The notes beneath the pieces are model-generated. The model was not told the origin of the DNA, searched no databases, and saw only the letters and a list, made by a program, of their open reading frames with translations. From Escherichia virus TH22: a stretch of DNA of 64,000 bases. This document shows, piece after piece, positions 16,107 to 53,136 of the stretch. The DNA lies in the sequence record MT446396.1, one strand, 5' to 3'. The first letter of the stretch is position 1, and every line of letters begins with the position of its first letter. The position numbers and the translations under genes were made by a program.

Positions 16107-16174
16107 GTGTACAACAAGATGGTCATGAGGCATAATGATTCCATACTGAGTTACCAAATAAACTGGAGAATAAA
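16107..16174 (+). promoter_or_regulatory. early promoter plus CATACTGAGTTACCAAA leader
   Basis: GTGTACAA -35, CATAAT -10. Confidence 0.5.
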
Positions 16175-16381
16175 ATGTTAGAATTAATCAAAGCTGCTGG
16201 TGAAAAAGGTCTGATGGTTAACACTCGTGACCCTGAACAACGTCAAGCATTTGGTGAGTTAAAAGCCAAAGGTCTGGTTAAAGCATCCCTTGGTATTGGT
16301 AATGCTTTGCGTGTGACTTTGACCCCTGCAGGTAAAGCAATGTTCTTCCCTAAACCATTACCAAAACGTCGTCGCAAGTGA
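16175..16381 (+). CDS. hypothetical protein
   Basis: Terminator then early promoter with CATACTGAGTTACCAAA leader upstream. Confidence 0.45.
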   Translation: MLELIKAAGEKGLMVNTRDPEQRQAFGELKAKGLVKASLGIGNALRVTLTPAGKAMFFPKPLPKRRRK

Positions 16382-16692: not shown

Positions 16693-16760
16693 GTGTACAC
16701 AAGTATGGGAGCGTGGCATAATGTTCCTATACTGAGTTACCAAACAAACGGGAGAATAAA
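16693..16760 (+). promoter_or_regulatory. early promoter plus CATACTGAGTTACCAAA-type leader
   Basis: GTGTACAC -35, CATAAT -10, leader TATACTGAGTTACCAAA. Confidence 0.5.
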
Positions 16761-17285
16761 ATGGAAGCCAAATCAATCTTTAATCTGATTAATTACAATA
16801 ATGGTAATTTTAAATCAGAAGCACAAAGCAAGTTCTTTAATGATGTTGCTTGTGCAGGTGAGATTACAGTATCAGGTGGTCAAACTTATAAAAACGCCTG
16901 GAACTGGATTGTGACTGTTGATTCAGTTGGTATTGTTGATGTGTATAAAAACACTAACAAAAACCGCTCTTTGTTCTGGTCAAGAGAGACTAATGCTGAG
17001 TATCAAGCGGCAAGAGCAAAGAAAAATATGCCAACTGAATCTGATATCCAAAACATCAAATCAGATATCCAATATTATGATGGTCTGATTGCTGAACAAC
17101 AAGCAGTGCTTGATAAGTTCAATGAAATCAAAGCATGTAAAGAGATTCCTGAATTCATGCGGGAATCAGTTAATGAACAATACAATCTCACTTCAGAGCG
17201 TATTGAAACCTATACCAAACAAAGAGCAGAGCGCCAGGTACTCCTTCAGAAGTTTGAAGAGCGTTTAAAGACGGTTCTCGCATAA
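16761..17285 (+). CDS. hypothetical protein
   Basis: Early promoter with CATACTGAGTTACCAAA leader upstream. Confidence 0.45.
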   Translation: MEAKSIFNLINYNNGNFKSEAQSKFFNDVACAGEITVSGGQTYKNAWNWIVTVDSVGIVDVYKNTNKNRSLFWSRETNAEYQAARAKKNMPTESDIQNIKSDIQYYDGLIAEQQAVLDKFNEIKACKEIPEFMRESVNEQYNLTSERIETYTKQRAERQVLLQKFEERLKTVLA

Positions 17286-51338: not shown

Positions 51339-51953
51339 ATGCTGTACACTGATGACGTTTTGAATGGAATTATTGACACTGCCGCTTCTAGTGAGTCTTT
51401 TCGTAACCAATGCCAAGCGGAGATTGATGCTCTTTATACAGATAATGAGCAATCAGTACTCTGGCAGTGTATGGAAAATAAACCTGACCTGATTCAAGAA
51501 GACTTGTCCAGGATTATCCGCAACAATCTGAATACTGCACCACCCCCGGCGTTGTTCCGTGGTATATCAAAGAAAACTATGGAATACCTGGAAGATTTAA
51601 GATATGTTGGTGCAACGATTGAATTCAATCGTGTAATGAGTTTTTCCAGGGACTGGCAGGTTGCAAGAAATTTCGCATCATACAGTTTCTATGGAACAAG
51701 GAATATTTTCTGCATAAACAATGCACCATATGCGTATAACTATCAGGAAGCAATCTTCAAAATGATTTGTGGTGCTCCTCCTGAAGAGTTCAATGGTGCA
51801 TATCCAGAAGCAACCAGGAAGTCAAACTTGCACCTGGTTAATGATGAAGATGAGTTTATGTTTCCCGCTGGGACTACGCTCCGCGTAGACTTGATTGAAA
51901 CACACCCATTGAATAACCTGTATACTGTTTGGCATTTGACTGTTTTGAACTAA
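51339..51953 (+). CDS. ADP-ribosyltransferase, ModA/ModB family
   Basis: LFRG, SFSRDWQVARNFA, EDEFMFP; paralog of upstream gene. Confidence 0.55.
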   Translation: MLYTDDVLNGIIDTAASSESFRNQCQAEIDALYTDNEQSVLWQCMENKPDLIQEDLSRIIRNNLNTAPPPALFRGISKKTMEYLEDLRYVGATIEFNRVMSFSRDWQVARNFASYSFYGTRNIFCINNAPYAYNYQEAIFKMICGAPPEEFNGAYPEATRKSNLHLVNDEDEFMFPAGTTLRVDLIETHPLNNLYTVWHLTVLN

Positions 51954-52088
51954 CCAAAGACCTTAGAACCATTATACACAGTAAAAATAAAAGCGTTAAA
52001 GGCGAAAAAGTGGTGTACATGAAAGATGAACGGTGTATAATAATTTCATACTGAGTTACCAAATCGTCCGTAAGATGAGAAAAATATC

Positions 52089-52835
52089 ATGACTTTATCA
52101 AAAACCAAAACGCTGAAAGTTAAACGTCGCCTGGAACACACTCAAGCTTCTGCTAAACGTCGTGGCAAGGACTTTAACCTGGATTTCAATTACCTGGTTA
52201 ACATTCTTGACCAAAAAGTTTGTGCTTATTCTGGTGAAACATTTAATAACTCTATTGAAGGTGAGAAGTTATCATTAGAGCGTTTTAACAATGACATTGG
52301 TTATATCAAAGGTAATGTTATTCCTGTTAAAAAGAAATACAACACCATGCGTTCTGATTGGTCCCTGGATGAGCTTAAACAACGTCGTGATGATGTTGCT
52401 GTAAAAATTGCTCGTCCATCTGTCAAGAAGATTGAAAAGTTAAATCTGACTGCAGAGAAATGGGAACAGATTAAAAAGTCATATACCCATATCAAGAACA
52501 TCCAACACAAACGTGAGAATCGCGTTAAGCATTATGCTCAAATGAGTAAATCAGAGCAGTCCAAAGAAAACCAATTAAAAATGGTTGCTCTGAAGGCTCG
52601 CATTGATGGTTCCCGTATTGCGGAAGGTCATGAGCTTACTAAATTGAACGTCTTGCTCAAAGGTAATGACTGGAAAGTTACCAAGAAATTAACTAATGCT
52701 GAAACGCTTTTTGATTGCTATGATAAAATCATTCAAGGTCTTGAGCGTTTTGAGAAGATTGGTTTTATTGGTAAATTAAAACTGAAACGTGGTCTGCCTT
52801 TGAACGCGTCAATTTTTAAACTGATTAGAGGTTAA
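52089..52835 (+). CDS. hypothetical protein with degenerate HNH-like motif (Srd position)
   Basis: CAYSGETF...LSLERFNNDIGYIKGNVIPVKKKYNTMRSD resembles an HNH pattern with Cys/His replaced. Confidence 0.45.
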   Translation: MTLSKTKTLKVKRRLEHTQASAKRRGKDFNLDFNYLVNILDQKVCAYSGETFNNSIEGEKLSLERFNNDIGYIKGNVIPVKKKYNTMRSDWSLDELKQRRDDVAVKIARPSVKKIEKLNLTAEKWEQIKKSYTHIKNIQHKRENRVKHYAQMSKSEQSKENQLKMVALKARIDGSRIAEGHELTKLNVLLKGNDWKVTKKLTNAETLFDCYDKIIQGLERFEKIGFIGKLKLKRGLPLNASIFKLIRG

Positions 52836-52839
52836 TGTG

Positions 52840-53136
52840 ATGTACTACGCATATGTGCTGGTCCACAAAGATAAAGATGGTTTTGAACACCCATTGGAGT
52901 ATGATGGAAAGGTTACCTTATACACCACAAAAGTGGGCGCAGAATATGAACTTGCCAACTATTCATATACTACAAGCCGCTATTTACGCATGGGACGTAT
53001 TGAAACAGTATGCACACCTAGAAAATGGTGGTTTGATAAGTGGGAAACAAAAACTGTTTTTCCTACTGAAGAACACGCACGAGAATTGAAATTAATTTTA
53101 GATACTTTATATGTTAAGCGAGTAAAATTGGCATGA
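52840..53136 (+). CDS. hypothetical protein
   Basis: ATG 52840 (track start GTG 52837); directly upstream of dda. Confidence 0.4.
   Translation: MYYAYVLVHKDKDGFEHPLEYDGKVTLYTTKVGAEYELANYSYTTSRYLRMGRIETVCTPRKWWFDKWETKTVFPTEEHARELKLILDTLYVKRVKLA

Follow-up and report, generated by a model that had tools for sequence, protein, structure and literature searches.

We analysed a 64,000-nucleotide (nt) stretch of the genome of Escherichia virus TH22 (sequence record MT446396.1; one strand, 5′ to 3′; hereafter the window) and examined the gene that an earlier reading of the letters (the original prediction) had placed at the position of T4 srd, with a degenerate HNH-like motif in its product. TH22 belongs to the Tevenvirinae. 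Its protein has the same sequence, at 100% identity, as the 'anti-sigma factor Srd' annotated in Escherichia phage UPEC07 (Gaprivervirus); along its entire length it matches phrog_1400 'Srd anti-sigma factor' (E = 1.1e-98), and it shares 68% identity with T4 Srd over all 248 residues with zero gaps. The locus carries two mod ADP-ribosyltransferase genes (modB/modA) followed by srd, dda.1 and dda, which is the T4 order. Full-length similarity, together with the position between the mod genes and dda.1/dda, places the protein in the T4 Srd family and identifies it as Srd itself, the ortholog of the T4 protein, so the proposed assignment stands. Overall, the protein has a pronounced basic character (pI 10; 54 Lys and Arg versus 29 Asp and Glu). 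Our comparisons indicate that its N-terminal domain belongs to the HNH superfamily, with the restriction endonuclease PacI as its closest relative, and that the putative active site is conserved rather than degenerate. The features of the locus are collected in Table 1.

The AlphaFold model of the N-terminal domain contains helices 5–25 and 33–40, strands 61–65 and 77–81, and helices 82–88 and 93–107, with a predicted local distance difference test (pLDDT) score of 87 for the full-length protein and 92 for residues 1–108. Strands 61–65 and 77–81 and helix 82–88 coincide with the motif, and the domain thus has the two antiparallel strands followed by a helix that make up the core of a His-Me finger. 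Residues ~5–100 match phrog_3322 'endonuclease' (E = 8.5e-20), phrog_3118 'HNH endonuclease' (E = 5.6e-18) and phrog_1035 'endonuclease VII' (E = 3.7e-8). When the domain-family alignment was compared with the canonical HNH fragment Gme HNH (4h9d; 22% identity to Srd), hhalign gave P = 7e-5 and paired C45/C, S48/C, E64-R65/D-H, N76/N, K81/C, Y84/C and N85/N. The HNH-like spacing had been proposed for CAYSGETF (amino acids (aa) 45–52) and LSLERFNNDIGYIKGNVIPVKKKYNTMRSD (aa 61–90); both peptides are present, and the Gme HNH alignment returns the register that had been suggested for them. This spacing, C-x-Y-C-G ... D-H ... N ... C-x2-C-N, is the same column for column in the canonical zinc-containing HNH nucleases (Gme HNH, McrA, Cas9 HNH, Hpy99I and T4 endonuclease VII). 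Compared with these enzymes, Srd has Arg for the catalytic His, Ser, Lys and Tyr for three of the four zinc cysteines, and a loop Tyr in place of His, as in PacI. By fold and by profile, membership of the Srd N-terminal domain in the HNH (beta-beta-alpha-Me, His-Me finger) superfamily is real, and the resemblance of the motif, as judged from these alignments, is far beyond chance.

The domain is widespread. When the N-terminal domain was used in an exhaustive profile search, 7102 cluster representatives were retrieved (E ≤ 0.001), and many family proteins contain it in two to four copies; a word-index search with a 110-aa N-terminal fragment as query returned only 10 close matches. Searched by tblastn, a 131-aa stand-alone family member matched mostly Srd itself in isolate phages, and a search across the window for a second copy of the domain found none. 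Curated HNH models gave marginal matches only among 79 distant relatives (Endonuclease_7, 0.01; HNH_5, 0.034). The family is very large and mostly viral, and its signature is C-x-Y-[ST]-G ... [ST]-x-[DE]-R-x-[DN]-x3-G-Y-x2-x-N ... N-x2-[KR].

To place the domain among proteins of known structure, a profile of 48 diverse domain copies, the TH22 sequence included, was searched against the whole PDB with hmmsearch and matched PacI (E = 8.6e-4). The wider-family alignment also aligned with PacI in hhalign (92% probability, P = 5.8e-7, 76 columns), and the two methods agree on the residue correspondences. At the end of strand 1, Srd Glu64-Arg65 falls on PacI Asp92-Arg93; in the loop between the strands, Gly71-Tyr72 falls on Gly99-Tyr100; and Asn76, Lys81, Tyr84, Asn85 and Arg88 correspond to PacI Asn104, Cys109, Cys112, Asn113 and Lys116, respectively. 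Lys27 is paired with PacI His42 in both profile alignments, in a weakly aligned region. As summarised in PMC5714182 and PMC4081073, PacI is the exception among HNH enzymes that works without the catalytic His, whose role is taken by a Tyr in the inter-strand loop, and an Asp and an Asn coordinate the enzyme's one metal ion; Arg93, Tyr100 and His42 are the catalytic residues named in PMC13139853. Srd and PacI (PDB 3ldy/3m7k) thus resemble each other in the [DE]-R ending strand 1, the G-Y in the loop, the Asn before strand 2 and the N-x2-[KR] of the helix, in the absence of the catalytic His, and in belonging to a predominantly viral clade. Jablonska et al. (2017) placed PacI in a small, mainly giant-virus 'group 20', where Srd is not mentioned (PMC5714182). 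The proteins share 17% sequence identity and differ in that Srd has Lys as the weakly aligned counterpart of PacI His42 and a helical C-terminal half of 130 residues that PacI lacks. PacI is a proven sequence-specific DNA cutter, whereas Srd is known for its reported stimulation of RNase E. Within the limits of these profile comparisons, the closest relative of the Srd domain is PacI, an active restriction endonuclease.

The residues that correspond to the PacI active site are strictly maintained. Across 38 Srd orthologs, the most distant of them at 27% identity, Glu64, Arg65, Tyr72, Asn76 and Asn85 do not vary, nor do Cys45, Ser48, Lys27, Lys81 and Tyr84 and, within CAYSGETF, Ala46, Tyr47 and Glu50. 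Of the 20 columns without variation in the full-length protein, 19 fall in aa 22–85, and every motif residue of T4 Srd is identical to that of TH22 Srd. The same positions are 98–99% conserved overall across 245 domain instances of the wider family: Tyr72 is Tyr in 242, Asn76 is Asn in 243, Asn85 is Asn in 240, and position 64 is acidic in 242 (168 Glu, 74 Asp). At the Arg65 column, Arg is found 241 times and His not once, so that the position of the catalytic His is shown by the alignment to be Arg throughout the family, as in PacI. Because none of the 245 instances has His and the PacI group forms the same exception, the missing His is, on the alignment evidence, a trait of the clade and not decay specific to Srd. 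The original prediction was correct that the catalytic His is replaced, by Arg65, and the reading of that replacement as degeneracy fell away, since the PacI clade naturally has Arg at this place. Its further step, that replacement of the His had made a binding module of a nuclease fold, is not warranted: the clade combines Arg for His with a Tyr in the loop and is active. The HNH homology behind that step held; the degenerate reading did not, given that the PacI catalytic residues are invariant. Taken across the alignments, the Srd active-site constellation is of PacI type and conserved, not degenerate.

What Srd appears to have truly lost is only the binding of zinc. Cys45 is the sole Cys of the domain and is kept in 241 of the 245 domain instances (codon 52221–52223 in TH22); the other three ligands of the zinc site beside the beta-beta-alpha core are replaced by the invariant Ser48, Lys81 and Tyr84, which stand where PacI and canonical HNH enzymes bind zinc and bear out the proposal that the second Cys and the second Cys pair had been exchanged. 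There is no N-terminal Cys pair, and in the profile alignments nothing in Srd corresponds to the N-terminal Cys4 site of PacI. Ser48, Lys81 and Tyr84 may form a hydrogen-bonded substitute for the zinc knuckle. Zinc-less members are the majority of the large domain family as sampled by the 245 instances, so that the loss of zinc is not in itself a sign of decay in Srd.

Table 1. Features of the srd locus, in window coordinates.
Feature	Coordinates	Strand	Details
srd coding sequence	52089..52835	+	ATG start, 248 aa plus stop; ortholog of T4 Srd
N-terminal domain, aa 1–108	52089..52412	+	predicted zinc-less PacI-type beta-beta-alpha-Me (His-Me finger)
CAYSGETF, aa 45–52	52221..52244	+	first zinc knuckle remnant; Cys45 = PacI Cys63, Ser48 replaces PacI Cys66
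Core LSLERFNNDIGYIKGNVIPVKKKYNTMRSD, aa 61–90	52269..52358	+	beta-beta-alpha; aligned to PacI and Gme HNH
C-terminal half, aa 122–248	52452..52832	+	AlphaFold model: long helical hairpin (helices 122–153, 159–191) and small helical end; basic (pI 10)
Conserved C-terminal motif, aa 196–248 (...GLERFEKIGFIGKLKLKRGLPLNASIFKLIRG)	52674..52832	+	hmmsearch
Promoter-like site TGTACA - 16 nt - TATAAT	52014..52041	+	T4 early-promoter type, 10/12 matches; immediately upstream of srd
17-nt leader CATACTGAGTTACCAAA	52047..52063	+	starts 5 nt after the -10; three copies in window

The C-terminal half is modelled with pLDDT values of 84–94, except for a loop near aa 191–200 (a 10-residue block averaging 57), and its matches are coiled coils or helical hairpins only. 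Within the last ~50 residues lies the motif GL.(K/R)FENLS..DK.K.K.GLPL..S..KLLK, which is common to Srd-like proteins of 220–330 aa from distant T4-like phages, those of 270–330 aa among them; among Srd orthologs G235 is invariant, and L236 and P237 are at least 90% conserved. A profile of this motif matched nothing among the PDB sequences. We regard the motif as a candidate partner-binding element.

The assignment can be weighed against explanations that involve no nuclease homology at all. It is scarcely credible that a helical, lysine-rich protein unrelated to HNH should resemble the motif by chance. When Srd and 37 orthologs were scanned against Pfam and NCBIfam, only coiled-coil noise and no HNH family (HNH, HNH_3, HNH_5, Endonuclease_7 and others; E up to 10 for Srd and up to 1 for the 38 orthologs) came up, as a chance resemblance would have it; such a resemblance is nevertheless ruled out by the fold, with its predicted beta-beta-alpha element exactly at the motif, by the PacI profile match and by hhalign, and it is at odds with the PHROG cross-matches. 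The original prediction had proposed that the HNH relationship would fall if profile searches did not show it. The Pfam HNH models are silent on all Srd family members, so that this test would have given a false negative, and the relationship emerged from the PHROG endonuclease families and PacI instead. Srd has also been taken for a sigma-factor decoy or anti-sigma factor, in which case the HNH-like motif would be incidental; T4 and most records carry the annotation 'postulated decoy of sigma factors RpoD and RpoS', and LKLKRGLPLNA of Srd briefly resembles LRMRFGIDMNT of sigma-70 region 4. However, the best-conserved part of Srd is the nuclease-like domain and not the C terminus, and no sigma factor was found with the full-length profile among 177,635 PDB sequences (E up to 10) or with the C-terminal motif profile among PDB sequences. 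An hhalign comparison with sigma-70 region 4 reached P = 0.07 over 11 residues (<1% probability). With none of these three comparisons significant, we rejected the sigma-70 similarity; the historical rationale of the name (similarity with rpoD) is thus without support from the searches made, and a decoy function seems very improbable.

A far stronger contender accepts the HNH fold and holds it to be catalytically inert, a binding module for the RNA or DNA backbone or for RNase E, with Srd as an adaptor or allosteric activator. The loss of zinc ligands, the absence of the classical His, the very basic character of Srd and its reported action through binding the catalytic half of RNase E all speak for such a module, and we put its likelihood somewhat short of even. 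Several further observations weigh against a competent PacI-type site, in addition to the Pfam and NCBIfam scans. The profile built from Srd orthologs only is weak against PacI (hhalign P = 0.0024, 12% probability), so that it took the wider family alignment to establish the link to PacI. Srd has neither of the two PacI Cys4 zinc sites, only the equivalent of Cys63 surviving; Glu64 stands where PacI has the metal ligand Asp92; and Lys27, the weakly aligned counterpart of PacI His42, does not vary among Srd orthologs, while relatives have K, L or I at this position, many of them Leu or Ile. Phosphate binding or a stable fold could equally well account for the strict conservation of these polar residues. 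Finally, mRNA destabilisation by T4 Srd reportedly required functional RNase E in the 2015 work of Qi et al., a dependence that weighs against Srd as a stand-alone RNase. Set against the inert module, on the other hand, is the fact that its precedents have lost catalytic and metal-binding residues, whereas Srd keeps every PacI equivalent invariantly. The zinc-less HNH fold of the yeast Tcd C-terminal domain (9hmo/9hmp), judged inactive and contributing to tRNA binding (PMC13139853), keeps only the Arg and has neither equivalents of Tyr100 and His42 nor the metal ligands; Srd retains the Tyr and both metal-ligand equivalents. SMAD MH1 and Enpp are further inactive His-Me fingers available for comparison. 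In addition, the change from His to Arg is ancestral to an active clade rather than specific to Srd, and members without zinc form most of the family. Since Srd differs from the degenerate Tcd in keeping the Tyr and the metal ligands, we rate a competent PacI-type site slightly above an inert module on these comparisons. That aa 1–108 of this phage early protein form a genuine PacI-type domain whose site is still competent for metal and phosphodiester binding, and which probably cleaves, has in our estimate an even chance of being correct.

If the site is competent, Glu64 and Asn85, in place of PacI Asp92 and Asn113, would hold a divalent metal ion and the site would engage a nucleic-acid phosphodiester, with Tyr72 as base or nucleophile and Arg65 stabilising the phosphate; cleavage by the PacI mechanism would then, on balance, be the probable outcome. 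Partner contacts or oligomerisation would fall to the very basic, helical C-terminal half, and the contacts may include the N-terminal half of RNase E. Srd would accordingly influence the decay of host RNA by engaging nucleic acid in partnership with RNase E, rather than by mimicking a sigma factor. A bolder version is possible, though we find it rather doubtful: T4-type Srd might be a zinc-independent, tyrosine-dependent endonuclease that uses the PacI mechanism to cut host RNA or cytosine-containing host DNA and so aids host shut-off. If that were true, Srd chemistry at RNase E-bound substrate would explain part or all of the reported RNase E stimulation, and the zinc-less C-x-Y-S-G ... [DE]-R ... 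G-Y ... N ... N domains, present by the thousand in phages and giant viruses, would constitute an uncharacterised class of active His-less HNH nucleases.

In the accounts of PMC13232886, PMC4980113 and PMC9409239, which cite Qi et al. (2015), T4 Srd attaches to RNase E through the enzyme's catalytic N-terminal half and speeds host mRNA decay. Only three phage effectors are reported to target the RNA degradosome, and among them Srd is the sole RNase E activator (2016 eLife, PMC4980113). Full-text literature searches found no paper joining Srd with HNH or PacI, and of the papers in which Srd came up together with nuclease or AlphaFold terms, none dealt with its fold. A few GenBank records already call Srd orthologs 'HNH endonuclease', which indicates that annotation pipelines have picked up the similarity. 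The fold class itself is therefore known, and the PacI-type reading and its mechanistic implication appear to be new to the literature searched. The gene still stands under a 1998 'sigma decoy' label that was unsupported by any test in this analysis. With the best-conserved half of Srd recognised as a nuclease domain of PacI type whose catalytic constellation is intact, a vague question of mechanism becomes a set of specific experiments. The comparison also ties a large viral domain family, whose 7102 cluster representatives are mostly unannotated and absent from Pfam, to PacI, its one solved and characterised member, and within the PacI clade 'no catalytic His' cannot be taken to mean 'dead HNH'.

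Upstream of the gene, the 17-nt leader CATACTGAGTTACCAAA probably includes the transcript start. It had been noted as common to three genes, and we found the copies at 16142, 52047 and, with one mismatch, 16728, where 0.01 would be expected by chance in the window. All three (16142–16158, 16728–16744 and 52047–52063, + strand) lie 5–6 nt behind the -10 of a promoter-like site of the form GTGTACA-N16/17-(T/C)ATAAT. The other two genes are small open reading frames (ORFs), 16175–16381 (68 aa) and 16761–17285 (174 aa), each with a GGAG Shine-Dalgarno sequence. T4 srd has an early-type promoter of its own in the same upstream place (GTTTACA...TATAGT/TATAAG); the 17-mer is absent there, whereas TH22 srd has both. 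The promoter-like site of srd is overlapped by a 41-aa ORF (51929–52054, +) that stops within the leader and is labelled 'hypothetical protein' in the UPEC07 record; this ORF is probably not a gene.

Downstream, dda.1 (52837–53136, +) begins 2–5 nt past the srd stop (52833–52842, TAATGTGATG), where translation could start at GTG or at ATG, and the 3′ end of dda.1 overlaps the start of dda by 4 nt. This tight packing suggests translational coupling of srd, dda.1 and dda. In the UPEC07 record, three small ORFs between srh and the mod genes (161778–162585; about 50–160 aa) are labelled 'molybdenum ABC transporter', which looks like an annotation transfer error.
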